This document shows positions 2,383 to 51,873 of a DNA stretch of 64,000 bases, one piece after another (positions within the stretch are counted from its first letter, which is position 1; the number at the start of each line of letters is the position of its first letter). The stretch comes from an uncultured Synergistales bacterium (lineage in GTDB: Bacteria > Synergistota > Synergistia > Synergistales > JAFGMB01): positions 10,834-74,833 of the forward strand of contig CAYPIU010000005.1 of assembly GCA_964410915.1 (NCBI GenBank), in the 5' to 3' direction. A program made the translations under genes and the position numbers. The notes beneath the pieces are model-generated. The model had not been told where the DNA came from, searched no databases, and saw nothing but the letters and a program-made list of their open reading frames with translations.

Positions 2383-2418
2383 GCAGTGTAATCCTCCCCG
2401 AGTTATGTGGATAAGAAC

Positions 2419-2460
2419 ATTAGAGATCCAGGGGCAGATATCTGCCCCTGGATCTCTAAT
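2419..2460. terminator. Perfect 42-bp palindrome (hairpin; intra-operon terminator or processing element)
   Basis: attagagatccaggggcagat|atctgcccctggatctctaat, between the TAXI solute-binding gene and the permease. Confidence 0.7.
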
Positions 2461-2466
2461 CATGAA

Positions 2467-3414: not shown

Positions 3415-3494
3415 AATTTTCCCTCCTTAAATTGTGATCCTTTTTCGTTGTTCCCCCCTTGAAACATTAAATCCAGAATTCTCTCCGAACTTCC

Positions 3495-4862: not shown

Positions 4863-4905
4863 CTCCTTCTTTTATAATTGAAATATTGCTTGTTTTAAAT
4901 CAATA

Positions 4906-5760
4906 TCAATCCCCGGGAGTATATATCCCTTTCTCTTCCCATACTCTCTCAAGCTTTTCCAGTTGCAGATTGGTATGCTCACCCATTTCATGGGCGACTG
5001 TTAGAATTACTGCATTTATCACACAGAGAGGGGCCGTAAAAGAATCTATAAATGATATGGGGTTCCATGGAACAGAAACTACACAATCGGAGACTTCTGA
5101 AAGGGGACTGTTAAAATCACTTGTAATTGCTGCTGTATGAATTCCCTCTTCTTTCGCAAAATTCAGGAGATCATTGGTCCACCCCGAAAAACGCGGGAAA
5201 CTGATACCAATAGCAAGAGTATTCTTTCCTGTTCCAGCTATCTTTTCAAAAGCAAGGTGACTGTCAAGTAAATATGTATTCGGAAGGAACCAGGACAGAT
5301 AATAGGAAAGATAGAATGCCAGAGAGTAGGAACTTTTCTGCCCAAAAATAAAGATCGCAGGTGCGGTAATTATTCTTGACGAGAGATCGTTAATAGTCGC
5401 CCTGTCCACTTGCCATCTTGTAAGAGAAATGGTCTTCTGGGCTGATTCCGCGATTCTTTCAAGAAAGTCTTCTTCTGCTGCATTTTCGTAATCTCTGTAT
5501 CTTTCAAGAGTGGATAAATGTTCCATCAGATGCTTCTGGACAGCAGATTTAAGCTCGGGAAAACCTGAATAGCCAAGTGCACCCGCGAGCCTTATAACAG
5601 TAGACTCACTAACGCCTGCCCTGCTGCCTATCTGTGAAGCTGTAAGAAATGCTGCTTCACCTGGATTTTTCAGTATGAACCGGGCAGCATCAACCTGTCC
5701 TGAAGATAGTTTATCAAGTCTGTTTTCAATTCTCGTTTTCAGCATCTCTATCACACTCAC
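4906..5760 (-). CDS. MurR/RpiR-family transcriptional regulator (HTH + SIS)
   Basis: LTASQIGSRAGVSESTVIRLAGALGYSGFPELK HTH; SIS-like ISFPRFS and AITSDFNSPL. Confidence 0.93.
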   Translation of the reverse strand: MSVIEMLKTRIENRLDKLSSGQVDAARFILKNPGEAAFLTASQIGSRAGVSESTVIRLAGALGYSGFPELKSAVQKHLMEHLSTLERYRDYENAAEEDFLERIAESAQKTISLTRWQVDRATINDLSSRIITAPAIFIFGQKSSYSLAFYLSYYLSWFLPNTYLLDSHLAFEKIAGTGKNTLAIGISFPRFSGWTNDLLNFAKEEGIHTAAITSDFNSPLSEVSDCVVSVPWNPISFIDSFTAPLCVINAVILTVAHEMGEHTNLQLEKLERVWEEKGIYTPGD

Positions 5761-5934: not shown

Positions 5935-7707
5935 TTACTTACGCGGAGGAATGTGTACTGCAATGTTATTTACATCCAGTGCAGCCTCTCCAAGCGCCTC
6001 TCCTATGGTTGGATGAGCATGAATTGTAGTGACTATCTCGTCGATGGTGGCTTCAAGACGGAGTGCAAGAGCTGCTTCAACGATCAGGTCTGTAGCTCTT
6101 GGCCCAATGATATGAACTCCCAGGATCTCATCATACTTCTCATCAACAACGAACTTGATGAATCCTTCGGTTTCATTCATGATTAGACTTTTGCCATTAG
6201 CTATAAGGGGGAATTTTCCGATCTTTACATTATGCCCCTTTTCAACTGCCTGTTCTTCTGTCAATCCAGCCCAGGCAATTTCAGGAGACGTATAAACTGC
6301 TCCAGGATTAGTCTTGTAATCCATTACGGTCTTATGCCCCATAATATTTTCAGCAGCAACCTCACCTTCTCTGGATGCTACATGAGCAAGCATTATAGGA
6401 CTGCAGCAATCTCCAATGGCATATATACTATCTACACTTGTTTTCATTTTCTTATCGATAATGATCTTTGCCCTGTCCATCTTAACCCCGGTGTTTTCAA
6501 GTCCAAGCGTGGATGTAGAGGGTTTCCTTCCAACAGAAACAAGCACCTTTTCGGTTATGATCTCCCTGTCTCCTTCGGACATCTTGACTTCTGATACCAG
6601 AGATCCATTTTCTTCTCTGAAACGGGTTACCTTCGAAGACGTAAGAATTTCAACACCCTTCGCAGCAAGTACACTTTTGAGTACTGCTACGATTTCTTTG
6701 TCAGTATTCGGAAGGATCTCAGGCAACATTTCAACAATTGTCACCCTGGTACCAAGGCTGGCAAAAATTGATGCAAATTCAACACCAATTACTCCGCCTC
6801 CAACGATAGTCATTGAATCAGGAACTTTATCAAGGCTCAGAGCTTCATTACTTGTAATGACACCCTTCGAGTCGATCCCCGGTACAGGCGGGACTACGGG
6901 CTCTGATCCGGCGGCTATAATACAGTAATCCGGAGAAAGGACCTGATCTTTTCCGGAACTGCTGACCCTGATCTCGGAATCAGAAATAAAAGAAGCATCT
7001 CCTTCAAGCATTTTTACTCCGTTTGAAGAAAGAAGAGATCTTACGCCTCCAACCAGCTGAGCAGTAACCTGTTCCTTTCGTTTCATCAGGGCAGACCAGT
7101 CAACTTCTACATTGTCTGCTTTTAAACCTATCATTTCGCCCTCTTTAACTGCGTTAAAAAGTTCAACTGTATGAAGAAGGACCTTTGTCGGAATACAACC
7201 GACGTTGAGACATGTGCCGCCATAGTATTTTCTGTCGACAATAGTTACGTCAGCACCAAGTTGTGCCGCCCTTATCGCTGAAACGTAACCACCGGGACCT
7301 GCACCTATTACCAGTACTGAAGTACCTTCTCCTATTCCAGCCTCTGACATTTCAGAACTTTCAACCGGTTTTTTCTCAGGTGAAGCTGAAGTCTCACTTT
7401 CAATCTTTACTGGCTTTTCCTCAGTCACAGGTTCTTCAGCGGCAGGAGATGAAGTTTCTACTTCTTCTCCTGGTGCTGCTATAATTCCTACTGCATCTGA
7501 AACAGCAGCCGAACTTCCAGCAGGGACCAGGATCTTCGCCAGGACTCCGCTTTGCTCTGCTTCAACTTCAAAGGTAAGTTTATCAGTTGCAACAACAAGA
7601 ATGATCTCACCCTTCTCAACGGGATCACCCTCCTGTTTTTTCCACTCGGAAACTGTACCCTCGGTCATTGTAAGACCAAGTTTAGGCATTGTAATTTCGT
7701 TAGCCAT
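5935..7707 (-). CDS. lpdA: Dihydrolipoamide dehydrogenase (E3) with N-terminal lipoyl domain
   Basis: Lipoyl motif VATDKL, FAD motif VIGAGPGGY, redox disulfide GGTCLNVGCIPTK, C-terminal HAHPTIGE. Start set at ATG 7707 (MANEITMPK). Confidence 0.95.
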   Translation of the reverse strand: MANEITMPKLGLTMTEGTVSEWKKQEGDPVEKGEIILVVATDKLTFEVEAEQSGVLAKILVPAGSSAAVSDAVGIIAAPGEEVETSSPAAEEPVTEEKPVKIESETSASPEKKPVESSEMSEAGIGEGTSVLVIGAGPGGYVSAIRAAQLGADVTIVDRKYYGGTCLNVGCIPTKVLLHTVELFNAVKEGEMIGLKADNVEVDWSALMKRKEQVTAQLVGGVRSLLSSNGVKMLEGDASFISDSEIRVSSSGKDQVLSPDYCIIAAGSEPVVPPVPGIDSKGVITSNEALSLDKVPDSMTIVGGGVIGVEFASIFASLGTRVTIVEMLPEILPNTDKEIVAVLKSVLAAKGVEILTSSKVTRFREENGSLVSEVKMSEGDREIITEKVLVSVGRKPSTSTLGLENTGVKMDRAKIIIDKKMKTSVDSIYAIGDCCSPIMLAHVASREGEVAAENIMGHKTVMDYKTNPGAVYTSPEIAWAGLTEEQAVEKGHNVKIGKFPLIANGKSLIMNETEGFIKFVVDEKYDEILGVHIIGPRATDLIVEAALALRLEATIDEIVTTIHAHPTIGEALGEAALDVNNIAVHIPPRK

Positions 7708-7808
7708 TACTAAAATATTCCTCCTCAAAAATAGGCTTGTTAATCCGGTTTTATGAATATCCGGGCGGGGTTCTTACAGGGGGTAAACGCACCGCCCGGA
7801 GAAAAGTT

Positions 7809-9305
7809 TTAGACCAGAAGCAGATAGGGATTTTCTATAATTTCACGTATCCTGGCCAGGAATTTAGCTGCATCTGCACCATCAAGGATTCTGTGATCTG
7901 CGGTCAAACCAATATTAGACATTGGTCTGATCACAATTTCCCCGTCTCTAACTACAGGCTTTTCAGTTATGGCGTTAACAGCAAAGATACATGCTTCAGG
8001 TGGGTTGATAATTGGAGTAAAGTCCTGCATTCCAAACATTCCAAGATTGGTTATAGTAAATGTGCCTCCCTGCATTTCGTCCATGGAAAGCTTTCCTGTT
8101 CTTGCTTTTTCCACTAATTCATCTGTAGCTGAAGCAATTTCCTGAAGATTTTTGCTCTGAACTGCCTTTACATTAGGTACAACGAGCCCGCCTTCAATAG
8201 CTACTGCAAGACCAATATTAACGTCTGAATGCAATATATACTCGTTTGATGCTTCATCGTAGCTTGCATTCGCCATCGGATAATCCTCCAGCGCTCTGCT
8301 GCAGACCTTCATTAGAATATCGTTAAAGGATAATTTTGCCCCTCCAGAAGATACCTGATCCTTTATTCGTTTACGGAAAGAAATGATCTCCGAAAAGTCC
8401 ACTTCCATATTGAAGACCACAGATGGAATTGTATTTGAACTCTGGGTCATTCTCTCTGCGATGACTTTCCTCATTGGTGAAAGAGGAACTCTCTTATCAC
8501 CTGTCACGGTCTTCTCAGAAAGAGCCTTTCCCTTAACTGTTTCCGGCTTTTCTGATACTTCTTCTGCACCAGCGGCTCTGAGTACATCCTCTTTCATTAT
8601 CCTGCCGCTGGTCTCAATGGAAGCAAGGTCCACACCAAGATCTTCGGCCATTTTTGATGCAACAGGAGAAGCTTTTATCCTGCCTTCAGAAAGATCTTCC
8701 AGATATCTTAAAACATCGGCTTTGACTGTACGTCCTTCGGGGCCTGTACCGGTTACAGCAGTAATATCAACATTATTATCTCTGGCTGTTTTTCTTGCTG
8801 AGGGTGAAGCCTTGAACATCACGGCTTCTTTCATTACATCTTCTTTTACGATCCTCTCACCTGGACCGGAACCTTTAATTTCAGAAAGAGAAAGCCCGAA
8901 TATTGAAGCCCATTTTCTCGCAAGAGGTGAGGCTTTTACCGGACCTTCCTGGTGCTTTACTTCGGGTTTCTCCGAGACCTCAGTTTTGACTTCCGCTACT
9001 TCCTCTTTTTCAGGAACTTCTTCCTCTGGCTTTGTGTCAGCCGGAGATGCTGTTTCGATCTTTTCCCCAGCCTGACCGATAACAGCAAGGTTCTCCCCTA
9101 CGGGAACCGACTGACCTTCTTCGACCAGCACCTGGAGCAAAGTTCCATCATCGGGAGCTTCTACATCATATGTAAGTTTATCTGTTGCAACTACAAGAAT
9201 TATGTCACCTTTTGTAACGGTATCGCCCTCACTGACATTCCAGCTTGAGATTAAACCTTCAGTCATGGTCAATCCCAGCTTAGGCATTGTAACGTAAGTT
9301 GCCAT
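7809..9305 (-). CDS. acoC: Dihydrolipoamide acyltransferase (E2) of an acetoin/2-oxoacid dehydrogenase complex
   Basis: Lipoyl VATDKL, three E3-binding (KASP..) repeats, GTFTITNLG, catalytic DHRILDG. Confidence 0.92.
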   Translation of the reverse strand: MATYVTMPKLGLTMTEGLISSWNVSEGDTVTKGDIILVVATDKLTYDVEAPDDGTLLQVLVEEGQSVPVGENLAVIGQAGEKIETASPADTKPEEEVPEKEEVAEVKTEVSEKPEVKHQEGPVKASPLARKWASIFGLSLSEIKGSGPGERIVKEDVMKEAVMFKASPSARKTARDNNVDITAVTGTGPEGRTVKADVLRYLEDLSEGRIKASPVASKMAEDLGVDLASIETSGRIMKEDVLRAAGAEEVSEKPETVKGKALSEKTVTGDKRVPLSPMRKVIAERMTQSSNTIPSVVFNMEVDFSEIISFRKRIKDQVSSGGAKLSFNDILMKVCSRALEDYPMANASYDEASNEYILHSDVNIGLAVAIEGGLVVPNVKAVQSKNLQEIASATDELVEKARTGKLSMDEMQGGTFTITNLGMFGMQDFTPIINPPEACIFAVNAITEKPVVRDGEIVIRPMSNIGLTADHRILDGADAAKFLARIREIIENPYLLLV

Positions 9306-9377
9306 GGGAAATCCTCCTCAACAAATCATTATCCGGAAAGGGGAATCCCTTCCAGCAGTCTGATCATTTATCTAAAA

Positions 9378-10433
9378 CTATTCTGAAGCCCAGGGATCAA
9401 GAATGATCTTGCATGCCCTGCCTTCCTTAAGCAATTCAAAACCCTTGTCAAATTTTGAAAGGGGCATTTTATGAGTAACTATCGGCGCAAGCTTTAACGA
9501 TCCTGAATCTATTAGATTCTCCATGACGGTCCATGTCTTGAACATTTTTCTTCCATGGATACCTTTTATCTTTGCTTCCTTGAAGATCACCTCTGGTCCA
9601 AGATCGATGGTGAACGGATCTGATGGAAGGCCGACAAGAGCAACATTTCCGCCTTTTCGCAGAATCTTGAATGCACCTGCAATGGCAGTGGTATTACCTG
9701 AAGCATCTATGAAGGCATCTACTCCAACATTTTCTGTCAGATCAAAAATCCGCTCGGAGAGATCCTCTTTCATGGGATTAATGCAGACATCTGCACCCAC
9801 ATCTCTGGCAACAGACAGTCGTTCTTCGGAAACATCGCTCGCAATTATCTTAGCTGCACCCAGTGCCCTGAGAGCTGTTATCGAACCCAGACCTATAGGA
9901 CCTGCTCCTATTACAGCAACAACAGATCCTGCGGGATCAACTTCCATTGCAGAACGCACACTTGTTCCAAGAGGTTCCATCATGGCTGCATATTCCCTTG
10001 GTATACTTTCAGGGATCTTTCTTGCACATATAGCAGGAAGAACCGTATATTGGGCAAAACAGCCATCACAGTGAACACCAAAAAGCATCATATTGGCACA
10101 TATGTGCTGCTGACCATTAAGACACTGGTAACATCTTCCGCAAGGACCATGGGTCTCTCCAGCTACATAATCACCCTCCGATAACCCCGTTACACCATCG
10201 CCCAGACTGACCACTTTGCCGCTGAACTCATGTCCCATGATCTGAGGTAATGACTTTACTGCACCCTGAGCCCATTTATTCCATTCATATATATGTACAT
10301 CTGTTCCGCAGATCGCAGTAGCAAGTACTTTTACAAGGACTTGCCCTGATCCTGGTGAAGGGATCGGGGCATCTTGAAAACTCCCCCCGAAAGAAGGACC
10401 AGTCTTGACTACAGCCTTCATCATTTCATCCAT
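9378..10433 (-). CDS. tdh: Zn-dependent dehydrogenase, L-threonine 3-dehydrogenase-like
   Basis: ICGTDVHIY, GHE, structural Zn CGRCYQC..C, GAGPIG, and Tdh-type GIHGRKMFKTW. Start set at ATG 10433 by RBS spacing. Confidence 0.8.
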   Translation of the reverse strand: MDEMMKAVVKTGPSFGGSFQDAPIPSPGSGQVLVKVLATAICGTDVHIYEWNKWAQGAVKSLPQIMGHEFSGKVVSLGDGVTGLSEGDYVAGETHGPCGRCYQCLNGQQHICANMMLFGVHCDGCFAQYTVLPAICARKIPESIPREYAAMMEPLGTSVRSAMEVDPAGSVVAVIGAGPIGLGSITALRALGAAKIIASDVSEERLSVARDVGADVCINPMKEDLSERIFDLTENVGVDAFIDASGNTTAIAGAFKILRKGGNVALVGLPSDPFTIDLGPEVIFKEAKIKGIHGRKMFKTWTVMENLIDSGSLKLAPIVTHKMPLSKFDKGFELLKEGRACKIILDPWASE

Positions 10434-10452
10434 TGAAAACACTCCTCCAGGA

Positions 10453-11211
10453 CTAATTGTCCCTCATTATTCCACCATCGACATCGGTTATCTCGCCTGT
10501 AACGTGACTTGCAAAATCAGAAGCAAGGAAGAGAACCATATTTGCAATATCCTGTGGTTGTCCAAATTTTTTAAGAGGAACTCCCTGTAAGATCCTTTCC
10601 CTGTTTTCTTTGGAACAACCTGATAACATATTTGTCTCTATCGGTCCCGGGCATATAGCATTGGCATTTATACCGTAAGGTCCGGCTTCCCTGGCAATTC
10701 CCTTGGTAAGCGCAATAACACCAGCTTTTGATGTACCATAAATCGTATTACCAAAGAATCCCCCGCCCTTCTTGCCGGCGATGGACGCGATATTTACTAT
10801 CTTGCCGTATTTTCGACCTATCATTCCGGGAAGAGCTGCAAAACAGGTGTTGTATACTCCCTTGAGATTAACTGCCATTATCTTGTCCCATTCTTCCTGG
10901 GTAGTCTCAAGGAATGGTTTTGGAGAAACTATGCCTGCATTGTTGACAAGTATATCTATACTTCCCCAACTTGCTTCGACCTCGGCGATAACTTCCTGAA
11001 CCATTTCCAGTTTTGATACATCTGCCTTGAAGACCATGGACTTTCCACCGCTCTTCTCGATCTCGGCTTTTGTCTCTCCTGCTCCCTCAACATTCATGTC
11101 TATTATGGCTATATTAGCACCGCAAGATGCTAAAGTAAGTGCTATAGAACGGCCTATGCCCTGTGCTGCTCCAGTAACAAGAACATTTTTACCATTGAAA
11201 TCAAACTTCAA
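10453..11211 (-). CDS. Short-chain dehydrogenase/reductase (FabG-like SDR)
   Basis: TGAAQGIG, NNAG, YGTSK catalytic motif. Confidence 0.92.
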   Translation of the reverse strand: MKFDFNGKNVLVTGAAQGIGRSIALTLASCGANIAIIDMNVEGAGETKAEIEKSGGKSMVFKADVSKLEMVQEVIAEVEASWGSIDILVNNAGIVSPKPFLETTQEEWDKIMAVNLKGVYNTCFAALPGMIGRKYGKIVNIASIAGKKGGGFFGNTIYGTSKAGVIALTKGIAREAGPYGINANAICPGPIETNMLSGCSKENRERILQGVPLKKFGQPQDIANMVLFLASDFASHVTGEITDVDGGIMRDN

Positions 11212-11246
11212 GACTATCCCACCTTTGCAAAAATGAACGAAAAAAA

Positions 11247-12014
11247 TCAGTCTCTGACTATTCCTCCGTCTACATCAAAGATCTCACCTGTTACATGACC
11301 TGCCATATCAGAAGCCAGGAAAACGACAACATCGGCAATTTCTCTGGGTTCTCCGTATCTTTTCAAAGGGGTACCCTCTATAATGAGTTTTTTCTGCTCT
11401 TCAGGGATGGAATTACCCATGACCGTGCTTATAACACCCGGGCAGACTGCATTCGCATTGATCCCACTGGGACCGCCTTCTCTTGCAAGACCTTTGGTGA
11501 GTCCTATAACACCTGCTTTTGATGCTGCATAAATAGCAGTTCCACGAAATCCGCCTCCAAGTTTTCCGGCGATAGAGGCTATATTAATAATTTTTCCTGA
11601 ACCATTCTTTATCATTTCCGGGAAAACTGCATTACATGTATTGAAACATCCCTTCAGGTTTATTCCTATAACACGCTCCCAGTCATTTTCATCACATTCA
11701 GCAAAGGGAGTGGGAAGAGTTACTCCAGCATCGTTGACCAGTACGTCCACCCTGCCATATTTTGAGAAAATCTCAGTGAATGCTTTCTTAACATCACTGT
11801 GATCAGAAACGTCCAGGGGAAGAAAGTCAACTTTCTTCCCCTGGGCATTAAGTTCCATGGCAGTCTGACGGCCGGCTTCTTCAAGAATATCAAGGATCAC
11901 ACATGTTGCTCCCGATTCACAAAAGGACTCGACTATAGCTCTGCCTATCCCCCTGCTTGCACCAGTTACAACGACTATTTTCCCTGAAAGATCTATTACT
12001 GCCGGTCCATTCAT
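11247..12014 (-). CDS. Short-chain dehydrogenase/reductase (FabG-like SDR), paralogue of the neighbouring gene
   Basis: TGASRGIG, NDAG, YAASK. Start set at ATG 12014 (MNGPAV). Confidence 0.92.
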   Translation of the reverse strand: MNGPAVIDLSGKIVVVTGASRGIGRAIVESFCESGATCVILDILEEAGRQTAMELNAQGKKVDFLPLDVSDHSDVKKAFTEIFSKYGRVDVLVNDAGVTLPTPFAECDENDWERVIGINLKGCFNTCNAVFPEMIKNGSGKIINIASIAGKLGGGFRGTAIYAASKAGVIGLTKGLAREGGPSGINANAVCPGVISTVMGNSIPEEQKKLIIEGTPLKRYGEPREIADVVVFLASDMAGHVTGEIFDVDGGIVRD

Positions 12015-12015
12015 T

Positions 12016-12504
12016 TTATTCACCCTTCTCGTAGATATTAAAAAGAGGGAATTCAGTTTCTTCGTCAAATGCTCTCAGAATATCAACATTATCAAAACCT
12101 TCTACAAGAACTTCCATTGTGCTCATCACCGGATTACCACCTTCTACAAAGTGAGCACCATGAAAGCCCTGTTCAGGATCAGAGATAACGCCATGAAGAT
12201 GAACAGCAGTCTCGCCTGTATCTGAGAACTGGCCTATCATTCCACTTCCGCATATAAACTCGAGAGGCCCGTCGATATCTACAGGATCCCCGTACTTGGC
12301 ATTCATTTTTGTACCCGGCGCAGGAAGGGCCCATACAAATCTGGCTTTAGAAAGACTGCCGTGCATGGCAGTTATACATCCTGCTGTAATATCATTATCT
12401 TTACAAACCTTAAGTACTCCGGCCAGAAGATCTGTACCAGGCATCAGGCGAGCAACAACTTTTTTTCCTGTTACCTGTACCGAAGAAGTTCTTACATCAG
12501 ACAT
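12016..12504 (-). CDS. DUF296 / PPC-domain protein
   Basis: ARLMPGTDL, GSL, LEF, VHLHG...GAHF and TMEV pattern typical of DUF296. Confidence 0.85.
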   Translation of the reverse strand: MSDVRTSSVQVTGKKVVARLMPGTDLLAGVLKVCKDNDITAGCITAMHGSLSKARFVWALPAPGTKMNAKYGDPVDIDGPLEFICGSGMIGQFSDTGETAVHLHGVISDPEQGFHGAHFVEGGNPVMSTMEVLVEGFDNVDILRAFDEETEFPLFNIYEKGE

Positions 12505-12519
12505 TTAATACCCTCCGTT

Positions 12520-13500
12520 CTAAAACATACCTTTTATTGCATTAGCAATTTTTTCGGGGGTTACCCTGTAAGCCTGTTCAAGAGGTTTGGCAAAAGGCAC
12601 CGGGGTAAATGGAGCTCCAACTCTTGTAATCGGAGCATCAAGGTAATCAATGCCTTCTTCAGCTACAATAGCGGAAATTTCAGCTCCTACTCCGCCCTGT
12701 TTTACAGCTTCATGTGCGATAGCAAGTCTGCTGGTTTTAGCTATTGATTCAAGGATCGTCTCTTTATCAATAGGTGAAATAGTTCTCAGATCGACACATT
12801 CTACACTGATGCCGTCTTTTTCAAGCATCTCTGCTGCCTGCAGGCAATGGTTGAAACAAAGTGAATAGGATACAAGGGTTACATCCTTACCCTCTTTAAC
12901 AACCTTCGCCTTTCCTATGGGAGTAAAGAATTCTTCTTCAGGAACCGGGCCTGACATTCTGAACAGAGACTTGTGCTCAAAATAGACTACAGGATTATCA
13001 TCTCTTATGGCTGACTTGAGCAAACCTTTGGCATCGGCAGGATTTGAAGGAATTACAACCTTGAGTCCGGGAACATGCATGAACCAGGATTCTATGCTCT
13101 GGGAGTGCTGGGCAGCTGCCTGGTTAATAAGTCCGTCAGGAGCCCTGAGTACCATTGGGACCGTCTTCTGACCACCGAACATGTAATGGATCTTGGCCAT
13201 CTGATTATAGATCTCATCCATACAGACACCCATAAAGTCCGCAAAATGCATATCGGCTATTGGACGCATACCGGCAAGGGCTGCACCTACGCATGCTCCC
13301 AATATGGCTGTTTCTGTTATAGGTGTATCCTTGACCCTGTCAGATCCGAACTGATCAGGAAGACCCTTAAACTGGCCGAATATTCCACCCTGTCTTGCGA
13401 TATCTTCCCCCATGATAAATACATTGCTGTCGCGGCTCATCTCCTCCTGCATTGCTTCAAGAGTAGCCTGGGAAAATGTAATTTCTCTCATATTATTCAC
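12520..13500 (-). CDS. acoB: TPP-dependent dehydrogenase E1 beta subunit (acetoin/pyruvate dehydrogenase type)
   Basis: MGEDI..GG, DTPITE, AQHSQS, DLRTISP motifs. Confidence 0.93.
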   Translation of the reverse strand: MNNMREITFSQATLEAMQEEMSRDSNVFIMGEDIARQGGIFGQFKGLPDQFGSDRVKDTPITETAILGACVGAALAGMRPIADMHFADFMGVCMDEIYNQMAKIHYMFGGQKTVPMVLRAPDGLINQAAAQHSQSIESWFMHVPGLKVVIPSNPADAKGLLKSAIRDDNPVVYFEHKSLFRMSGPVPEEEFFTPIGKAKVVKEGKDVTLVSYSLCFNHCLQAAEMLEKDGISVECVDLRTISPIDKETILESIAKTSRLAIAHEAVKQGGVGAEISAIVAEEGIDYLDAPITRVGAPFTPVPFAKPLEQAYRVTPEKIANAIKGMF

Positions 13501-13505
13501 CGCCC

Positions 13506-14510
13506 CTATACATAAAGGTCCTGATATAATTCGGAAGGATCAGGCTCTGGTGATTCTGTTGCAAATTTTATAGCCTCATCAACTTCTTTAACAACCCGGT
13601 CTTTGATCTCGTCAAGCTCTTTCCTGTCCATAACCTTTTCCTCAAGGACTCTCTGTTCGAAACGTACTATTGGATCATTTTCATCGGAGACCTTCTGTAC
13701 CTCTTCCTTGGTCCTGTATTTTTCAGGATCTCCTACGAAATGTCCTTTAATACGATAGGTCTTGCATTCAAGAAGGGCAGGACCCTCTCCATTGCGCATT
13801 TTTTCAACAAGCTGTTTTGTAGCTTCATATACTGCGAATACGTCATTGCCGTCCACTATTACGCCAGGCATATCATAACCCTGGGCCCTGTCTGCAATAT
13901 CTTCCACAGATGTAGTTGTCAGGTAAGGAGTGGTTGAAGCCCACTGGTTATTTTCACAGACAAAAAGAACTGGCAGATCCCATGCAGATGCCATGTTGGC
14001 CGCTTCATGGAAGGTTCCGCGGTTTGATGCTCCATCTCCAAAGAAAACTACTGAAATATCTTTTCTTCCAAGCATCTTGCACGCCAGACCTGCACCGGTT
14101 GCGAGAGTATAGCCACCGCCGACAATGCCGTTTGCTCCAAGCATACCCACGCTGAAATCCGCAATATGCATGGAACCGCCCTTACCTTTGCAGAAACCTG
14201 TTTTTTTCCCGAATATCTCTGCCATCATCTTTTTGAGATCCGCACCCTTAGCTATAGTATGGCCATGACCTCTGTGAGTGGTCTCGATATAGTCATTCTT
14301 CGTAAGGTTACTCATAATACCAGTACCTGTGGCTTCTTCACCTATATAAAGGTGAACAAATCCGGGTATCTCGCCTGCAAGGAACTTTTTCTCAATGTTG
14401 GTCTCAAAATACCTGATTTTCACCATTGTTTCGTAAAAATGTTCAAGAAGCTCCTTGTCATATTTTTTGATAGAGGAAGGCCCCTTTTTTCTTACGGGTT
14501 TAGCACACAT
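13506..14510 (-). CDS. acoA: TPP-dependent dehydrogenase E1 alpha subunit (acetoin dehydrogenase type)
   Basis: GFVHLYIGEEA, THRGHGH, GKGGSMH, TPP motif GDGASNRGTFHE...NN, TYRIKGH. Confidence 0.93.
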   Translation of the reverse strand: MCAKPVRKKGPSSIKKYDKELLEHFYETMVKIRYFETNIEKKFLAGEIPGFVHLYIGEEATGTGIMSNLTKNDYIETTHRGHGHTIAKGADLKKMMAEIFGKKTGFCKGKGGSMHIADFSVGMLGANGIVGGGYTLATGAGLACKMLGRKDISVVFFGDGASNRGTFHEAANMASAWDLPVLFVCENNQWASTTPYLTTTSVEDIADRAQGYDMPGVIVDGNDVFAVYEATKQLVEKMRNGEGPALLECKTYRIKGHFVGDPEKYRTKEEVQKVSDENDPIVRFEQRVLEEKVMDRKELDEIKDRVVKEVDEAIKFATESPEPDPSELYQDLYV

Positions 14511-14555
14511 TTAAATACCTCCTTGAATTTAGAGTTCCAGCTAATCTATATGCCA

Positions 14556-15875
14556 CTAGGTTACGATAGATGGAAGCCACGTAACTATCTGAGGCCAGAT
14601 AATGCAAAGTGTAAGCGCTATGGCCTGCAGAATTACGAAGGGCGCGACTCCCCAATAGATTTCTTTTGTTGTAACACTTGGTGGTGCAACACCCTTGACG
14701 AAGAATATCGCATAGGCAAATGGCGGCGTAAGGAAAGACATCTGCAGATTAATGCATATGAGGAGAACAAAGTAAAGTGGATCGATCCCGAGATGTATTG
14801 CAATGGGGAGGAAGATCGGGACTACTATGTAGACGATACCGATCCAGTCGAGGAACATGCCCATTATGAAAACAGTGAACATCATTACAAAGACAACTCC
14901 CCACTTTCCAAGCCCAAGCCCGAGGAGAGCAGATTCTATAAGAGCTCCTCCACGCATGAAAAGAAACACTGATGTAAACATGGATGCACCAACAATTACA
15001 AAGAACACCATGGATGTTACCTTAATTGTCTCGTAAACAGCATCTTTTACAGTTTTGAGATTAAGTTTCCTGTAGAGAAGGGCGATTATAACTGCTCCAA
15101 GTCCTCCAAGGGCGGATGCCTCTGTTGGAGAAGCTATGCCTAAAAGAATAGAACCAAGAACAGCAAAAAGCAGACCAAGAATGGGAAGCATATAAACTAA
15201 GGTCTGAACGAGAAGCTGCTTGTTTGTACTCTCGGCTCTTTCCTCATCGGAAATCGAAGGAGCGATCGATGGCTGTAACCAGCATCTGATAACAATATAA
15301 GCGATATACAGAGAGGCAAGCAGAAGACCAGGCATAAGTGCGCCTGAAAACAATTTGGCAACTGAAAGATTTGTCATGGGTCCAAGTACGACCAGCATGA
15401 CACTCGGGGGGATCAGTATACCAAGGGTCCCACCCGCACAGACAACACCTGTTGAGAGTCCATGATCATAATTCCTCTGCAACATAGCCGGGAGTGCCAT
15501 AAGGGTCATTGTAGTGACCGATGCAGCTATTACTCCTGTGCAGGCAGCAAAAAGGGTACTGATTATTATCGTTGTAAGAGCAAGACCGCCTTTAATAGGA
15601 CCAAGCAGCTTATACATTGTATTAAACAATTTTTCGGCTGCTCCGCTTTTCTCAAGGATACAGCCCATGAATACAAAAAGCGGAACGGCTATCAGAATCT
15701 CGTTCTGCATCGTCCCAAAAATATTCTGCATATACAGGGACAACATCGCGGGGCCCCTGTAATACACGCCAAAAGTAACCCCAAGGAACATCATGGCAAA
15801 TGCAAGGCGAATACCTGACATAACCATGATTATAAGGATAACTAACATTGAAACAGCAAGGACTTCAGGACTCAT
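14556..15875 (-). CDS. dctM: TRAP transporter large permease DctM
   Basis: AVPLFVFMG, GTLGILIPPS, SPTEA, SFLTPPF motifs. Confidence 0.93.
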   Translation of the reverse strand: MSPEVLAVSMLVILIIMVMSGIRLAFAMMFLGVTFGVYYRGPAMLSLYMQNIFGTMQNEILIAVPLFVFMGCILEKSGAAEKLFNTMYKLLGPIKGGLALTTIIISTLFAACTGVIAASVTTMTLMALPAMLQRNYDHGLSTGVVCAGGTLGILIPPSVMLVVLGPMTNLSVAKLFSGALMPGLLLASLYIAYIVIRCWLQPSIAPSISDEERAESTNKQLLVQTLVYMLPILGLLFAVLGSILLGIASPTEASALGGLGAVIIALLYRKLNLKTVKDAVYETIKVTSMVFFVIVGASMFTSVFLFMRGGALIESALLGLGLGKWGVVFVMMFTVFIMGMFLDWIGIVYIVVPIFLPIAIHLGIDPLYFVLLICINLQMSFLTPPFAYAIFFVKGVAPPSVTTKEIYWGVAPFVILQAIALTLCIIWPQIVTWLPSIVT

Positions 15876-16375
15876 TCCGATTCTCCTTTAATAGCTTTCT
15901 GCAGATTTCTGTAAAGTTCCACAAATCCCTGCATGAACATCATTCCAAAACCGATGGGAATAACTGTTTTAACAGGACCAGATGGGAATCTCCAGAGTGT
16001 GGTAGAGAGCCTCTCTCCATGTGACCAGGCAAATGCTGCAAAATCAACTGACTTCCAGGTCAGCAAACCCATAATGGGAAGAAACAGGATAGCGAAAAAG
16101 AAGACGTCAAACCATGCCTGGTATTTTGCGGGAAGAGAACTGAAAATAATGTCGATTCTGACGTGTCTCTTATGTACCATTGTATAGGCTCCTCCAAGAA
16201 GGAACATGGCACTGAATAACATCCAGGCTGTATCGTATACCCAGTCAGTAGGACTGTTCAAAACATATCTTATCAGGACTTCGTAAACCACAACGGCATT
16301 GAGGGGAATTACAAGCCATGCACCGAATATACCTACTTTTTCATTGAACTTTTCTATGATATCTAAAAGTCCCAT
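15872..16375 (-). CDS. dctQ: TRAP transporter small permease DctQ
   Basis: Four TM segments, YEVLIRY, HVRIDI. Confidence 0.92.
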   Translation of the reverse strand: MGLLDIIEKFNEKVGIFGAWLVIPLNAVVVYEVLIRYVLNSPTDWVYDTAWMLFSAMFLLGGAYTMVHKRHVRIDIIFSSLPAKYQAWFDVFFFAILFLPIMGLLTWKSVDFAAFAWSHGERLSTTLWRFPSGPVKTVIPIGFGMMFMQGFVELYRNLQKAIKGESE

Positions 16376-16401
16376 AGATTCAGATTACCTCCTATGCCAG
16401 A

Positions 16402-16427
16402 GGTTGGCCCGAACTTTCGGGCCAACC
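16402..16427. terminator. 11-bp-stem hairpin between dctP and dctQ
   Basis: ggttggcccga-actt-tcgggccaacc; the usual position for stabilising the solute-binding-protein mRNA or partial termination. Confidence 0.55.
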
Positions 16428-16466
16428 AGGCTTTTCAGTTAACATAGAATAATAATTTTGTAATTA

Positions 16467-17510
16467 TTATTTATCGAACTTAGTAAAGTTGTAGAAGTCC
16501 ACATAGGATTCGAGGAACTGCTTCTGTGATTCCCAAACCTTCTTGAACATTGGATCTTCCTCGGATTTCTCATCAAGGATCTCGTAGGAAAGCTTGAGAG
16601 CCTTCATCTGGTCTTCTTTGGAGAGCTTGTTGATCTCCACACCAGCTTCCTTGATCTGATCAAAGGCCGTACTACTATCAACATAGAACTGGGAATAACC
16701 CTCGAAAGAAGCGGCTATAGCTGCATTTTTGACAATTGCTTTCAGATCGTCAGGAAGAGCTTCCCATTTTGCCGGGTTGATGACGAGCTGAAAAATGTTG
16801 GAACCCATGTGGATCGGGGGACCCATAAGGTAATCGCAGACTTCATGAAGTCCAAGTCCTACGTCCATGCTCGGGAATGCAAATTCAGCTCCGTCGATAA
16901 CGCCTCTGCGGAGAGAAGGTACTACCTCGCCGCCGGGAAGAAGGACAACGGAAGCTCCAAGTTTCTGCCAGAGCTCCATGCTCAGACCAGCGGAACGGAC
17001 CTTAAGACCCTTGATATCATCCAGGGTCTTGACCGGCTTAGTGGTCCAGATACCTGATTCGGGGGGGGTAAGACCGAGGGGAAAGACCTTTATGGCATCG
17101 CCGTACATCTCATCGGCAAGGGCCTGGCCTTCTCCGCCATACATCCATACGAGAAGATCATTTGTCTCAGTAACACCTGCGGGGAGGGTATAGAAAAGAT
17201 CGCCGGCAGGATACTGCCCCTTCTGCCAGGCGGGAGTATTCTGTCCACAGTCAAGGACACCGTCACGGACTGAATCGAAAACTGCGGGTCCGGGGACGAT
17301 CTCGCCTGAACCGTGAACTTCTATTACAAGACGTCCACCACTCATGGCTTCGACTTTTTCAGCCCACATGGGGAAATATGCACCCACAGGGAGTTTTACA
17401 GGGAAGCAGCTCTGTCCAATCCATTTGTAGCTGTCTGCAGCGACAGCAGACATGGCCATTGTAAGTACCATGACTACAGCTATTGCGACCAATAAAGCTT
17501 TTTTCTTCAT
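16467..17510 (-). CDS. dctP: TRAP solute-binding protein DctP, TakP-like (monocarboxylate/2-oxoacid subfamily)
   Basis: Signal peptide; AEKVEAMSGGRLVIEVHGSGEIVP, DSVRDGVLD, KGLKVRSAG, LPGGEVVPSL. Confidence 0.9.
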   Translation of the reverse strand: MKKKALLVAIAVVMVLTMAMSAVAADSYKWIGQSCFPVKLPVGAYFPMWAEKVEAMSGGRLVIEVHGSGEIVPGPAVFDSVRDGVLDCGQNTPAWQKGQYPAGDLFYTLPAGVTETNDLLVWMYGGEGQALADEMYGDAIKVFPLGLTPPESGIWTTKPVKTLDDIKGLKVRSAGLSMELWQKLGASVVLLPGGEVVPSLRRGVIDGAEFAFPSMDVGLGLHEVCDYLMGPPIHMGSNIFQLVINPAKWEALPDDLKAIVKNAAIAASFEGYSQFYVDSSTAFDQIKEAGVEINKLSKEDQMKALKLSYEILDEKSEEDPMFKKVWESQKQFLESYVDFYNFTKFDK

Positions 17511-17640
17511 TACTGCGAACCTCCTTAAGTTCTTAATAGATAGATGTGAAAACTGTAAACCTTAAAACCAGCTTCCTTATACCCCAAAATCACCACCTCT
17601 CCTCAAAATCCACCTCTTCCGGGTAAACTTTTAAAAGGGA

Positions 17641-18270
17641 CTACATAAGCCTAGTTTTACCTCCTTTAAGGTGGATATCCATCACTCTAAGTGCATTAAC
17701 AACATCTTTCTCTTTAAGAGCCTTGACTATTTGTGTATGTTCTTCATGAAAAAGCCGCATATTTTCCCGGGACTGAAGCATCTTGATATTCAGGGAATAC
17801 AGGCGATCTCTCAGGTTTGACATATACTCGATTATCATTGGATTTTCGTAAAATCTGAAAAGAGCCTCATGAAATTCTCTGTCACAACTCAGATAACTCG
17901 CAGCATCTCCTTCCTGGATACATTGCCCCTGACGCTCAACAATATTTTCAAGTCCCTTTATCTGATCCGATGTTAAATTGCCAGCAAGTTCCCTGATCAC
18001 AAACTCCTCAATAGCGATCCTAAGGTCATAGATATATCTGAATTCATTAACGGAAGTCTCGTTAACAACTATCCCCTTGTTGGGTACTATCTTTAAAAAA
18101 CCCTCCATTTCCAACTGCTGGAGAGCTTCTCTGACTGGAGTCCTGCTCATTTTTAATCGATTTGAAAGGGAATTCTCTGAAATATGGTACATATCCAGAA
18201 AATGCTGATCAGCTATAAGAGCCTTGATTTTATAGTATGCCTGTTTCTTCTTGGTTTGTTTTTTAAGCAC
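17641..18270 (-). CDS. GntR-family regulator (HTH + FCD)
   Basis: ISENSLSNRLKMSRTPVREAL HTH, DREFH..L, EH..I. GTG start after AGGAGG. Confidence 0.92.
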   Translation of the reverse strand: MLKKQTKKKQAYYKIKALIADQHFLDMYHISENSLSNRLKMSRTPVREALQQLEMEGFLKIVPNKGIVVNETSVNEFRYIYDLRIAIEEFVIRELAGNLTSDQIKGLENIVERQGQCIQEGDAASYLSCDREFHEALFRFYENPMIIEYMSNLRDRLYSLNIKMLQSRENMRLFHEEHTQIVKALKEKDVVNALRVMDIHLKGGKTRLM

Positions 18271-18292
18271 AGGTAATCCTCCTGGAGGTAAC

Positions 18293-18335
18293 TTGCATAC
18301 AGGTTGAATACACTTCTTTGTATTGAAAGATACAT
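18293..18335. promoter_or_regulatory. Candidate GntR operator: TTG(C/A)ATACA repeats
   Basis: ttgcataca (18293) and ttgaataca (18304) as direct repeats, followed by tgtattgaaagataca, immediately upstream of gntR. Confidence 0.4.
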
Positions 18336-18459
18336 GTTACAAAAATATCTGTCAAGGGGCATTTGAATTGTCGGTAATGCAAGAAAATTATCTTGTTTTT
18401 AAGTAAATACTGACGTTAATAATTTCACTTGCCTTGCTCCCCGAAACTAAGAAATGGGT

Positions 18460-18488
18460 ACAGAGCAGGATATTTATTCCTGCTCTGT
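18460..18488. terminator. Hairpin downstream of the second DUF296 gene
   Basis: acagagcagga-tatttat-tcctgctctgt. Confidence 0.5.
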
Positions 18489-18713
18489 TGATCATTGAAA
18501 TTACAGACTGTCTGTCACAGGTAGTGGGATATGAGGTTTTAAGCTGTTTGACTGCCAATGCAACTTACAGCTTTCCGGTAAGATCTCATTATCTTTTCTG
18601 CTGTAATGCCGGGAAGGTCATGTATTGCTTACAGAGCATCTCCTTGCTCCACTTTCACTCGACTATTAACTGCAAACAATCTTCGGGTATCTTAGACTTT
18701 GAAAAGGATGTAT

Positions 18714-19193
18714 TTATTTCCCTGATATGTCAAATCTGATGAACTCGGTTTCTTCATCATATGATTTGTGCAGTTCAACAGAGCCAAACCCCTGGATAAC
18801 TATCTCCATTGTTGCCAAAACAAAAGTTTTACCATCATCCACTATATGACCTGCAATTGGCTCCATTTCATCAGTACCCACAGTACCATGCAGATGAAGG
18901 CTTATCTCTCCCTTTTCAAGTCCGATCATCCCCTGAGCTCCTATCAGTTCAAGCGGGCCCTGGATCATAATGGGCTCAAAATACCTTGCCCCTATTTCAC
19001 TTGTAGGATCCGGTGTAACACAGACAAGAGTTGCAGCTTTAAGGCTTCCAAGCATAGTAACGATCGTTCCTGAAAAGATATTTTTCTCTTTGCAAACCTG
19101 TCTTATACCTTCAAAAAGCTCTACGCCATGAGAAAAACGGGCGACAATGGTTTTGGAAATGTCAGTCTCAAATGCTTCAATTTTAGGATCCAA
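18714..19193 (-). CDS. DUF296 / PPC-domain protein (second copy)
   Basis: ARFSHGVEL, GSL, LELIG, LHLHG...AGHI, TMEI. TTG start at 19193 after GGGAGG; the ORF track starts at 19265. Confidence 0.85.
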   Translation of the reverse strand: MDPKIEAFETDISKTIVARFSHGVELFEGIRQVCKEKNIFSGTIVTMLGSLKAATLVCVTPDPTSEIGARYFEPIMIQGPLELIGAQGMIGLEKGEISLHLHGTVGTDEMEPIAGHIVDDGKTFVLATMEIVIQGFGSVELHKSYDEETEFIRFDISGK

Positions 19194-19293
19194 TACCTTA
19201 CCTCCCAATACGTATAAGGATAATTCCCTGGGATATAGATTATAGAGAAACCGGGAATTTATCAATCCCGAAACTAAGTATCAAGGAACACAG

Positions 19294-19761
19294 CTACTTT
19301 TTGTTTTCTCCCAGGTTTAATTCTCTGTATATCTGATTAAGTTTTCTTCCTATATCAAAATACTCCTTCTCCGTTTTCCTCAGGGATACAGCATCCTGCC
19401 TGTAATCCTTTTTTGCATACTTATCTCCATTGCTTCGCTGCTTTAATTTAATTGAAATATCCTCAAGCTGAGCAACTGCCCTCATAAAAACGCTTATATA
19501 GGCTCTTAGAGTTATCAGAAACTGGCCTTCCCTTTCTTTTCCATCAGGTTTAATAGACCTGATACTATCCTTGGCCTGTCCAAGTTCATCCTCCATTTCC
19601 TGCAGCCTTTCAAAATGCGCCTGGTAATTTACAGGCCTGAAAATCCCGGGAATGGGAATTATCTTTCTGAAGGAAGGCTTGAAAATATCTTCTTCTATAT
19701 TCACATATTCTTTAACAAGACCATTAACCTTCATTGCCACAGAAGAAACTTTCTGATCCAT
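19294..19761 (-). CDS. Hypothetical helical protein (155 aa)
   Basis: Long ORF with GGGGT RBS and coiled-coil-like composition; no family recognised. Confidence 0.7.
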   Translation of the reverse strand: MDQKVSSVAMKVNGLVKEYVNIEEDIFKPSFRKIIPIPGIFRPVNYQAHFERLQEMEDELGQAKDSIRSIKPDGKEREGQFLITLRAYISVFMRAVAQLEDISIKLKQRSNGDKYAKKDYRQDAVSLRKTEKEYFDIGRKLNQIYRELNLGENKK

Positions 19762-20984: not shown

Positions 20985-21025
20985 TTTAACAGATGTTGTA
21001 AAGGTTCAGACAAGGAGGTAGTATC

Positions 21026-24031: not shown

Positions 24032-24033
24032 AT

Positions 24034-25335: not shown

Positions 25336-25469
25336 CAGCAACAATGGAGTTTTTAGATTCATATATGGATAAATGAAGGAGTGATGCCAGGGAAAAGATC
25401 TTTGAGGTTAAAGGAGAAGTAGAGTTAAAGTAAAATTGGCTCCAAAAATTTCAGGAGGTGTCTAAAATA

Positions 25470-48139: not shown

Positions 48140-48225
48140 GCACTAAGGCAGCCCGGCGGTCATGGGTTGTACCTTTAGACCCGTAGCTTTGCGTCACTGT
48201 CTTTTGACAGTTTTGCCATTATCTC
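48140..48225 (-). ncRNA. c-di-GMP-I (GEMM) riboswitch
   Basis: Minus strand: GGCAAA-ACUGUC-AAAA-GACAGU-GACGCAAAGCUACGGGUCUAAAGG...CCCAUGACCGCCGGGCUGCC, about 30 nt upstream of the start codon. Confidence 0.9.
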
Positions 48226-51871: not shown

Positions 51872-51873
51872 TA

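Follow-up and report, generated by a model that had tools for sequence, protein, structure and literature searches.

In a 64,000-nucleotide stretch of DNA from an uncultured Synergistales bacterium (hereafter the window), a run of minus-strand genes combines a tripartite ATP-independent periplasmic (TRAP) transporter, an acetoin-type dehydrogenase complex (E1α, E1β, E2, and E3), a small protein of the PCC/DUF296 family, two short-chain dehydrogenases/reductases (SDRs), and a zinc-dependent enzyme resembling L-threonine 3-dehydrogenase (TDH). We tentatively propose, with somewhat less than even confidence, that this operon is catabolic: an imported α-oxygenated acid would be converted to an α-hydroxy-β-keto acid, decarboxylated by the DUF296 protein, and cleaved by the Aco-type complex to an acyl-CoA. 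The components all come from known families, but the literature that we searched describes neither a TRAP/Aco/DUF296 cluster nor, most notably, a role for DUF296 in one. More broadly, and rather more doubtfully, bacterial PCC/DUF296 proteins may constitute new metal-dependent enediolate enzymes, serving as decarboxylases in E1/E2/E3 operons and as isomerases that replace OtnI in tetronate operons. Combined with TRAP transporters and Aco-type complexes, they would make acetolactate-type or 2,3-dihydroxy acids into acyl-CoA by a widespread pathway in several phyla of anaerobes. Under automatic annotation the cluster genes would simply read as pyruvate dehydrogenase (PDH), threonine dehydrogenase, and FabG.

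Gene content and recurrence of the cluster

The run comprises thirteen co-oriented genes without interruption (5935-19265, minus strand), and the intergenic gaps are shorter than 100 bp throughout the stretch from dctP to the E3 gene. Behind a regulator with GntR and FCD effector domains (17641-18270, Pfam) lies a complete TRAP set of adjacent genes, namely the solute-binding protein DctP (16467-17510, PF03480), the small membrane subunit DctQ (15872-16375, PF04290), and the large membrane subunit DctM (14556-15875, PF06808, 2.3e-86), the last of which overlaps dctQ by 4 nt. These are followed by a thiamine pyrophosphate (TPP)-dependent, acetoin-dehydrogenase-like E1α (13506-14510, Pfam E1_dh), E1β (12520-13500, Transket_pyr and Transketolase_C, with 367 bits on the NCBIfam subfamily PRK09212), the in-operon PCC/DUF296 protein of 162 aa (12016-12504, PF03479), and two FabG-like adh_short proteins, SDR A (11247-12014) and SDR B (10453-11211). 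The Tdh-like enzyme (9378-10442), a zinc-dependent medium-chain dehydrogenase/reductase from a divergent subclade of the L-threonine 3-dehydrogenase family, precedes the dihydrolipoyl acyltransferase E2 (7809-9305), which has one lipoyl, three E3-binding, and one catalytic domain in Pfam. The last gene of the run encodes the dihydrolipoyl dehydrogenase E3 (5935-7728, likely starting at the ATG at 7707), with an N-terminal Biotin_lipoyl domain followed by Pyr_redox_2 and Pyr_redox_dim.

At the other end of the run, upstream of gntR, is a second PCC/DUF296 paralogue (18714-19265, PF03479, 1.6e-19), which is 39% identical to the in-operon copy, retains the His-x-His...His motif, and has an uncertain start, either the TTG at 19265 or an internal site near 19193. 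It is accompanied by a 155-aa open reading frame (ORF) lacking a Pfam match (19294-19761, minus strand), and both are kept only in the closest relatives (L011, L017, L033, and L034; related loci are numbered in this way throughout). Promoter and terminator scans performed no better than on shuffled sequence, with the sole exception of a promoter-like site ahead of gntR (TTGACA-17-TATCTT, 18355-18327). The exact window sequence is present at flat depth in metagenome runs, most of which are labelled soil metagenome.

An initial annotation of this DNA had placed and named the genes as Pfam and NCBIfam now do, with matching coordinates. It spoke of ten genes, but its own list holds eleven and its range also takes in the second PCC/DUF296 paralogue, which it left unmentioned. 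The first SDR needs a corrected start: the ORF reaches to 12068 and the likely ATG is at 12014, the SDR A homologues being 254 aa long. Its remark that acoR, acoX, and kbl are missing can be extended from the cluster to the full 64 kb, where Pfam, run on the ORFs of 150 aa or more, detected no AcoR (Sigma54_activat), no NAD-kinase-like AcoX, and no Kbl-type class-I/II aminotransferase.

To find related loci we took the in-operon DUF296 protein as the most specific marker and combined gene neighborhoods with a scan of genome collections and a scan of metagenomes. Its close homologues are few, forming 14 clusters in a collection of 5.8 billion proteins (word-limited search). Among 33 non-redundant loci that carry this PCC subfamily and are 10 kb or longer, 26 encode E1α/β, six encode OtnK/OtnC, and one (L016) encodes neither, while a TRAP transporter is present in nearly all. 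The initial annotation had made its reading depend on SDR and DUF296 genes being conserved beside aco genes, and their shared recurrence in loci of several phyla bears this out. The relatives found in genome collections are metagenome-assembled genomes (MAGs) of Synergistales and Synergistaceae, including one of Acetomicrobium hydrogeniformans.

The full gene order, that is GntR, DctPQM, E1α/β, PCC, one or two SDRs, Tdh-like enzyme, E2, and E3, recurs in Synergistales genomes and metagenomes (L001, L007, L009-L011, L017, and L033-L035). In L003, L004, and L012 the order is instead GntR, DctPQM, PCC, SDR, SDR, Tdh-like enzyme, E1α/β, and E2, such that the PCC-SDR-SDR-Tdh genes have relocated as one block. 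A minimal version consists of an AcoR-like sigma-54 or IclR regulator, a TRAP or TAXI transporter, PCC, and E1/E2/E3, sometimes joined by a lipoate ligase and a lipoyl synthase; thus the core of TRAP, PCC, and E1/E2/E3 occurs without any Tdh. The minimal version is found in MAGs of Peptococcaceae (L002), Negativicutes (L019), and Desulfarculia (L022), as well as in Pyramidobacter piscolens and other Synergistaceae (L020, L021, L023, L062, L065, and L066), and further versions occur in other lineages (L028, L029, L031, and the Deinococcota locus L030). The regulators vary likewise: the first gene is of GntR/FCD type in L001, L003, L007, L010, L011, L028, and L033-35, and AcoR-like sigma-54 activators are found in L002, L019, and L026. 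Because the cluster recurs across loci of several phyla, and does so with rearrangements, the association lies far beyond chance.

A reverse check that started from DctP gave the same picture. Five DctP homologues of 57-63% identity were sampled from other lineages, one of them a Deinococcota MAG, and their neighborhoods contained E1/E2 in four cases, an adjacent SDR in four, PCC in three, and a Tdh-like enzyme (46-58% identity) in three. Taken together with the marker scans, this check indicates that the association among transporter, DUF296, dehydrogenases, and lipoyl complex is robust.

Two kinds of locus deserve mention in their own right. In L032 (2411-8762) a 57%-identical DctP stands without nearby E1/E2 or DUF296 genes; its neighbors are an SDR, a β-keto-acid cleavage enzyme (BKACE), a LarA-family protein, and a TAXI system, and these enzymes likewise belong to β-keto or α-hydroxy acid chemistry. 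In L016 (9767-10492) and L013-L015, all from high-GC Synergistales, a solitary DUF296 gene has a giant ORF of 1863 aa on one side and a histidine kinase gene on the other. Since these flanks surround the entire cluster in L003, the solitary gene is apparently a remnant after gene loss.

Fold, motif, and operon contexts of the DUF296 protein

A model of the in-operon DUF296 protein, built with AF2 on the family alignment, reached a pLDDT of 91.8. When it was compared with the PDB by Foldseek, the first matches were DUF296 proteins from structural genomics, including one titled 'metal-containing protein AF0104'. The next were α-acetolactate decarboxylases only, from five organisms (5yho, 6j3d, 1xv2, 6inb, 6j92, 4bt2, and 4bt3; probability 1.00, E-values of 5e-3 to 2e-2, query TM-scores of 0.46-0.51), and no other enzyme family in the PDB scored above a probability of 0.4. 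One of the matched structures, 4bt3, is a complex of the decarboxylase with 2,3-dihydroxy-2-methylbutanoate. Across 20 diverse operon-linked DUF296 homologues, residues R19, E82, H102, H104, H118, and T129 are invariant. The histidines lie in a VHLHG-containing pattern with HxH-x13-H spacing, as compared to YH(L/E)HF and HxH-x10-H in the decarboxylases, a comparison made on sequences rather than on superposed metal sites. In the decarboxylases these histidines bind zinc.

Thus, judging from the model, DUF296 would share with the α-acetolactate decarboxylases (AlsD/BudA, PF03306; 4bt2/4bt3, 5xne, and 5yho) their fold, the His-x-His...His motif, and a conserved Arg and Glu, and by analogy both would use an α-hydroxy-β-keto acid via an enediolate. 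The two differ in build, in that the decarboxylases have two domains and about 235-260 aa, whereas DUF296 forms a separate Pfam family and has just one domain, some 160 aa long. We therefore regard PCC/DUF296 as a candidate metal-dependent decarboxylase or isomerase of α-ketol acids.

In bacteria DUF296 is now labelled 'PPC domain-containing DNA-binding protein' by analogy with plant AT-hook proteins. We considered the role of a DNA-binding regulator and set it aside, the protein having no AT-hook or other DNA-binding motif and carrying enzyme-like invariant His, Arg, and Glu residues. Our literature search returned nothing on the function of bacterial DUF296, the papers retrieved being mostly on DUF2961 and plant AHL proteins, and although structures of bacterial DUF296/PPC proteins have been solved, we know of none with an assigned function. 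The operon context and the acetolactate-decarboxylase-like fold therefore offer a concrete and cheap handle on DUF296 function. If the proposal is true, a domain that plant AHL proteins also possess would gain an enzymatic function for the first time.

The same PCC subfamily occurs in a second kind of operon. In a single lineage, PCC is accompanied by a HIBADH-family dehydrogenase at eleven metagenome loci, and in the six that are sufficiently long (L050, L052, L054, L058 at 7019-15235, L060, and L064) the full order is a PrpR-like regulator, PCC, the HIBADH-family dehydrogenase, and DctPQM, followed by a DUF1537 kinase and then a class-II aldolase. The kinase scores 427-432 on the model for 3-oxo-tetronate kinase (OtnK; cut-off of 350), the best match of the aldolase is 3-oxo-tetronate-4-phosphate decarboxylase (OtnC; 168-177), and the two are fused in L052. 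These PCC proteins are 37-41% identical to the one in the window, and the same residues are invariant in all PCC contexts. The published four-step route for threonate and erythronate places OtnI, a 2-oxo-to-3-oxo isomerase, between the dehydrogenase and the kinase (PMC12994016). No OtnI is encoded in the six full operons, which contain no additional ORF of at least 80 aa. DUF296 thus sits at the position of the missing OtnI, which by analogy suggests ketol isomerase as an alternative activity, and it is possible that the L058-type operon is a new variant of the threonate/erythronate pathway.

Transporter, dehydrogenases, and a proposed pathway

The closest PDB relatives of the window DctP are the ketoacid-binding protein 7ug8 (4e-39) and the lactate-binding protein TTHA0766 (2zzv, 6e-39), as well as TakP (2hzk/2hzl, 6e-33) and two pyruvate-type targets from the EFI (Enzyme Function Initiative), 4pet and 5cm6. 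By sequence it falls within the α-keto/α-hydroxy monocarboxylate group of a large family (1773 proteins at E<=1e-30), which points to a small α-oxygenated monocarboxylate as ligand; the exact ligand does not transfer from the solved relatives, because they are distant (best E-value 4e-39). The GntR/FCD regulator belongs to a class usually sensing carboxylates.

In the enzyme complex, separate E1α and E1β subunits, a lipoyl E2, and an E3 are encoded together, as in the AcoABCL systems. E1α is 54% identical (314 bits) to its counterpart in an Enterococcus plasmid cluster (L025), whose order is sigma-54 regulator, lpdA, E1α, E1β, E2, and 2,3-butanediol dehydrogenase, and 52% identical (301 bits) to that of a Bacillus acoABCL-like cluster; the best PDB match, human PDH E1α, gives 236 bits. 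E2 falls below the cut-off of the NCBIfam PDH E2 model (400 against 445) and E3 passes TIGR01350 (563 against 409). In some TRAP-linked clusters two or three E1α/β pairs accompany a single E2 (Anaeroselena agilis L026, 8024-17859; L029, 1252-18730; and the Deinococcota MAG locus L030, 4624-12400, which has a fused α-β E1 and a free-standing lipoyl protein), suggesting that there several substrates feed one acyltransferase.

The Tdh-like enzyme matches the PDB entries 2d8a and 3gfb at E-values near 1e-102 and is about 50% identical to the TDHs of Pyrococcus and Thermococcus, as compared to only 30% for the Enterococcus 2,3-butanediol dehydrogenase. We aligned 11 cluster copies with canonical TDHs, of which there were only four, using P. 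horikoshii numbering. C42, H67, E68, C97, C100, C103, and C111, the zinc ligands, are invariant in all of them, and pairwise alignments show that the zinc-binding E152 is retained; the histidine equivalent to E. coli His90 is kept as well. Other residues that are invariant in the canonical enzymes are replaced in the cluster copies: T114 by M or L, N135 by C (I in one), N156 by T or V, A157 by S or G (one unchanged), T174 by I, A, or V (one unchanged), and E242 by D (one unchanged), so that the segment after Glu152 reads EPLGTS instead of EPLGNA. These replacements are suggestive of a substrate related, but not identical, to threonine, and this clade with altered pocket residues calls for caution in automatic 'threonine dehydrogenase' calls. 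For the two SDRs the closest PDB relatives are generic FabG-like 3-oxoacyl reductases and 3-hydroxyacyl dehydrogenases; SDR B is the more widely retained (L007, L029, L030, and L031). By family analogy, TDH-type enzymes oxidize a C3 hydroxyl beside a C2 substituent and FabG-like enzymes act on β-hydroxyls, and an SDR that oxidizes the 3-OH of 2,3-dihydroxy sugar acids has been characterized (PMC12994016).

From the gene content, its conservation, the protein families, and the DUF296 fold with its invariant residues we infer a substrate and a series of chemical steps, every one of them conditional. The acid would be sensed by the GntR/FCD regulator and imported by the TakP-type TRAP system as a short α-hydroxy or α-oxo monocarboxylate oxygenated at C2 and C3. 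Its β-hydroxyl would then be oxidized by the Tdh-like enzyme and the two SDRs, each probably taking a different stereoisomer, to give an acetolactate-type α-hydroxy-β-keto acid; relatives that lack dehydrogenases may import the keto acid itself. The α-ketol acid would bind at the metal site formed by the three histidines of DUF296 and pass to an enediolate, most likely losing CO2 in this operon to leave a neutral acyloin, as in acetolactate decarboxylase. Finally, the Aco-type E1α/β, E2, and lipoyl-E3 may cleave the acyloin to an acyl-CoA, an aldehyde, and NADH. A TRAP or TAXI system carries a carboxylate and the E1α resembles those of acetoin and butanediol clusters; at some step the carboxylate must therefore be lost or moved. 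The initial annotation had likewise envisaged an imported 2,3-dihydroxy acid that is oxidized at C3, decarboxylated, and cleaved, and had left the decarboxylation unassigned; the acetolactate-decarboxylase fold and conserved His triad make DUF296 a candidate for it. Of that earlier scheme, the TakP-like transporter agrees with the PDB relatives of DctP, the acetoin-type complex with the nearest relatives of E1α, and the oxidation at C3 with enzyme families known for β-hydroxyls. The conserved unit and the acid-type binding protein also speak for it, although DUF296 might instead be an isomerase and E1 might still act on a 2-oxoacid. 2,3-Dihydroxy-2-methylbutanoate and 2,3-dihydroxybutanoate are reasonable candidates for the substrate, and the branched one would give harmless products.

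Within E1 operons, decarboxylation by DUF296 is favored because of the acid-to-acyloin logic and the decarboxylase fold, and also because minimal clusters have AcoR-like regulators and binding proteins of the acetolactate type. The latter point concerns L019 and L020, in which the best PDB match of DctP is 4P8B (7e-62 and 3e-55), a representative of an abundant type of binding protein (3024 matches at E<=1e-40). The PDB title of 4P8B begins by describing an EFI target, H16_A1328 of R. eutropha, and we take the structure to be a complex with (S)-2-acetolactate. A review lists 2-acetolactate among the new TRAP ligands of the study behind 4P8B.

Several observations weigh against the proposal. 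The window DctP is of TakP rather than 4P8B type, matching 4P8B only at 5e-10, and in cultured Anaeroselena agilis and Brevibacillus marinus a 4P8B-type DctP lies inside E1/E2 clusters that have no PCC. An hhalign comparison of the PCC alignment with three acetolactate decarboxylases gave a probability of 0.2%, indicating no sequence relationship, and in the Pfam scan DUF296 matched PF03479 only and not the decarboxylase family PF03306, so that the likeness is at the level of fold and motif, short of family membership. E1α is in the grey zone of the PDH model TIGR03182 (379 against a cut-off of 393.85), where AcoA proteins defined by context score 344 and 370 and the TRAP-linked relative L027 passes at 403.5; by sequence it lies nearest to the acetoin-type E1s, but sequence does not separate acyloin from 2-oxoacid substrates. 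From unbranched 2,3-dihydroxybutanoate, formaldehyde would arise if CO2 were lost ahead of cleavage, which is unattractive, and glyoxylate if cleavage were direct. In the OtnK/OtnC operons, moreover, decarboxylation ahead of the phosphorylation step would work against the pathway, the activity lacking there being that of an isomerase.

Decarboxylation and ketol isomerization by DUF296 would share the same enediolate intermediate, and isomerization is a serious alternative, though one we consider rather unlikely. Here PCC/DUF296 would interconvert 2-oxo-3-hydroxy and 2-hydroxy-3-oxo acids as a non-orthologous stand-in for OtnI, with the dehydrogenases making one isomer and E1/E2/E3 using the other, either a 2-hydroxy-3-oxo acid that is cleaved to acyl-CoA and glyoxylate (pyruvate if C2 is methylated) or a 3-hydroxy-2-oxo acid that undergoes oxidative decarboxylation to a 2-hydroxyacyl-CoA. 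This would explain why an extra enzyme is present where a 2-oxoacid dehydrogenase and dehydrogenases already are, and it accords with the invariant residues kept in every PCC context and with the six full OtnK/OtnC operons that have PCC and no OtnI. The known four-step route needs exactly an OtnI-type isomerase (PMC12994016), but the HIBADH-family enzyme might act as a 3-dehydrogenase and so make an isomerase needless, such a bypass being known in another family (PMC12994016), and a gene for OtnI might lie outside the operon. In addition, Foldseek finds no likeness to the OtnI/Hyi fold, the sole enzyme match being the decarboxylase, and the operon in the window has no genes for using glyoxylate or 2-hydroxyacyl-CoA. 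It is also conceivable, if improbable, that the complex is an ordinary 2-oxoacid dehydrogenase for pyruvate, 2-oxobutyrate, or branched-chain acids, fed by the TakP-like transporter, with the dehydrogenases and DUF296 accessory or unrelated (DUF296 being, for example, regulatory or structural). Proteins of the TakP group bind pyruvate, 2-oxoacids, and lactate, as their PDB molecule names also indicate; E1α lies just 15 bits below the PDH cut-off that L027 passes, E1β passes a PDH E1β subfamily model, and the FCD regulator class takes in PdhR and LldR. Yet PCC, the Tdh-like enzyme, and the SDRs would then have no role, although they are inherited jointly with the transporter and E1 in different phyla and move as a block. 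The E1α is nearer to E1s in an aco context than to human PDH, AcoR-like activators are found in relatives, and PCC with its invariant His, Arg, and Glu and no DNA-binding motif looks like an enzyme.

A role for every gene, without an exotic substrate, would also follow if the cluster scavenged C4 overflow products, a quite improbable reading in which TRAP imports α-acetolactate, DUF296 converts it to acetoin, AcoAB/E2/E3 cleaves the latter, and the SDRs and zinc enzyme are butanediol or diacetyl-acetoin oxidoreductases acting on neutral compounds that diffuse in. Classical aco clusters carry an SDR, a zinc-dependent butanediol dehydrogenase, or both, as on the Enterococcus plasmid and in the P. 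aeruginosa aco cluster, and 4P8B-like binding proteins are found in minimal clusters. Both window SDRs score 209-217 bits on the model for meso-2,3-butanediol dehydrogenase (BudC), which is nevertheless below its cut-off of 270, and the zinc enzyme belongs to the Tdh family, with the 30% identity to the Enterococcus butanediol dehydrogenase noted above. The window regulator is an acid-sensing GntR/FCD protein rather than AcoR, and the window DctP differs in type from 4P8B. Finally, a Kbl-independent threonine pathway appears very improbable. It would have Tdh form 2-amino-3-oxobutanoate, to be decarboxylated to aminoacetone with the aid of DUF296 or else split by the TPP complex without that step. 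Synergistota are amino-acid fermenters, and the Tdh-like enzyme keeps the zinc ligands and His90 equivalent and passes NF003808 (391 against a cut-off of 380), but it fails the stricter TIGR00692 (400 against 458), and T114, N135, and N156 are replaced throughout the cluster clade. TakP-type proteins recognize α-oxo and α-hydroxy rather than α-amino acids, the core of TRAP, PCC, and E1/E2/E3 does without Tdh elsewhere, and TPP-dependent cleavage of aminoacetone or an amino-keto acid would be unprecedented, yielding an imine or formaldehyde. We set the plain threonine pathway aside on the altered residues in the pocket region of this clade.

Comparison with known systems shows where the proposed pathway of import, oxidation, decarboxylation, and cleavage departs from precedent. 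The AcoABCL systems of Bacillus subtilis, Pelobacter carbinolicus, and Clostridium magnum, and that of L025, have the same type of E1α/β heterotetramer encoded together with a lipoyl E2 and E3, as well as embedded alcohol dehydrogenase genes, and the window E1α is 52-54% identical to those of clusters that also contain AcoR and 2,3-butanediol dehydrogenase. By contrast, the window has GntR/FCD in place of AcoR, no AcoX, TRAP and DUF296 inside the operon, a Tdh-like instead of a butanediol-type zinc dehydrogenase, and an E2 with three E3-binding domains. A lipoyl domain on E3 is reportedly present in C. magnum AcoL as well. TakP, the α-keto-acid TRAP protein of R. sphaeroides, and TTHA0766 belong to the same subgroup as the window DctP, at E-values of 1e-33 to 1e-39, and for both of them, as for H16_A1328, the ligand is a small α-oxygenated monocarboxylate. 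In the LtnD-OtnI-OtnK-OtnC pathway and the Ltn3D bypass (Zhang et al. 2016; PMC12994016) a 2,3-dihydroxy acid is likewise taken up by a TRAP system and oxidized by NAD(P)-dependent enzymes to an α-ketol acid, followed by isomerization, decarboxylation, or both, as proposed for the window; however, the window has a TPP/lipoyl complex instead of a kinase and class-II aldolase, and its carbon would end in acyl-CoA rather than in dihydroxyacetone phosphate. With Tdh-Kbl degradation the window shares the zinc ligands and about 50% identity to archaeal TDH, but it has no kbl in 64 kb, and its Tdh-like enzyme is placed inside a TRAP/E1 operon and has residues replaced. Anaerobes commonly have TRAP-linked 'acetoin dehydrogenase' or 'PDH' clusters, for which the present annotation is pyruvate dehydrogenase. 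Should acetolactate-type acids be their substrates, models of carbon flow in digesters, sediments, and gut communities mis-assign such clusters, and those communities would gain a new link through cross-feeding on acetolactate or dihydroxy acids that other members excrete.

Neighboring genes in the window

Downstream of the E3 gene, an RpiR regulator, a class-III aminotransferase, and TAXI-TRAP genes occupy 415-5760 (minus strand). Only the closest relatives (L005, L009, L033, and L041) have them beside the cluster, a lipoate-protein ligase taking their place in L001, and we therefore do not count them toward the pathway and regard them as probably an independent unit. On the other side, and divergent from the cluster, 19989-22135 (plus strand) encodes a pyridoxal-phosphate enzyme of the D-cysteine desulfhydrase family, whose best model is the D-cysteate sulfo-lyase CuyA (312 bits against a cut-off of 450), and then a gene of the alanine-racemase family. 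The pair looks like a racemase and D-amino-acid lyase unit.

Farther along, a c-di-GMP-I-GGC riboswitch (48143-48226, minus strand) scores 67.6 bits, above its gathering score, and has a 729-aa ORF without a Pfam match (45925-48114) directly 3′ of it. An IlvD/Edd-family dehydratase (48876-50537), a TRAP transporter (50585-53396), and a divergent GntR/FCD gene (53516-54205) make up what looks like a sugar-acid unit (48876-54205). A further minus-strand group (55507-60229) consists of DctP (59165-60229), DctQ, DctM (57379-58803), a VanX-like D-Ala-D-Ala dipeptidase (56593-57360), and a protein of the D-Ala-D-Ala-ligase family (55507-56562). D-Ala-D-Ala is said to be among the known TRAP ligands since the work of Vetting in 2015. 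In all, the 64 kb hold five TRAP systems, including the TAXI system at 415-3414 and a DctQMP set at 23408-26480.

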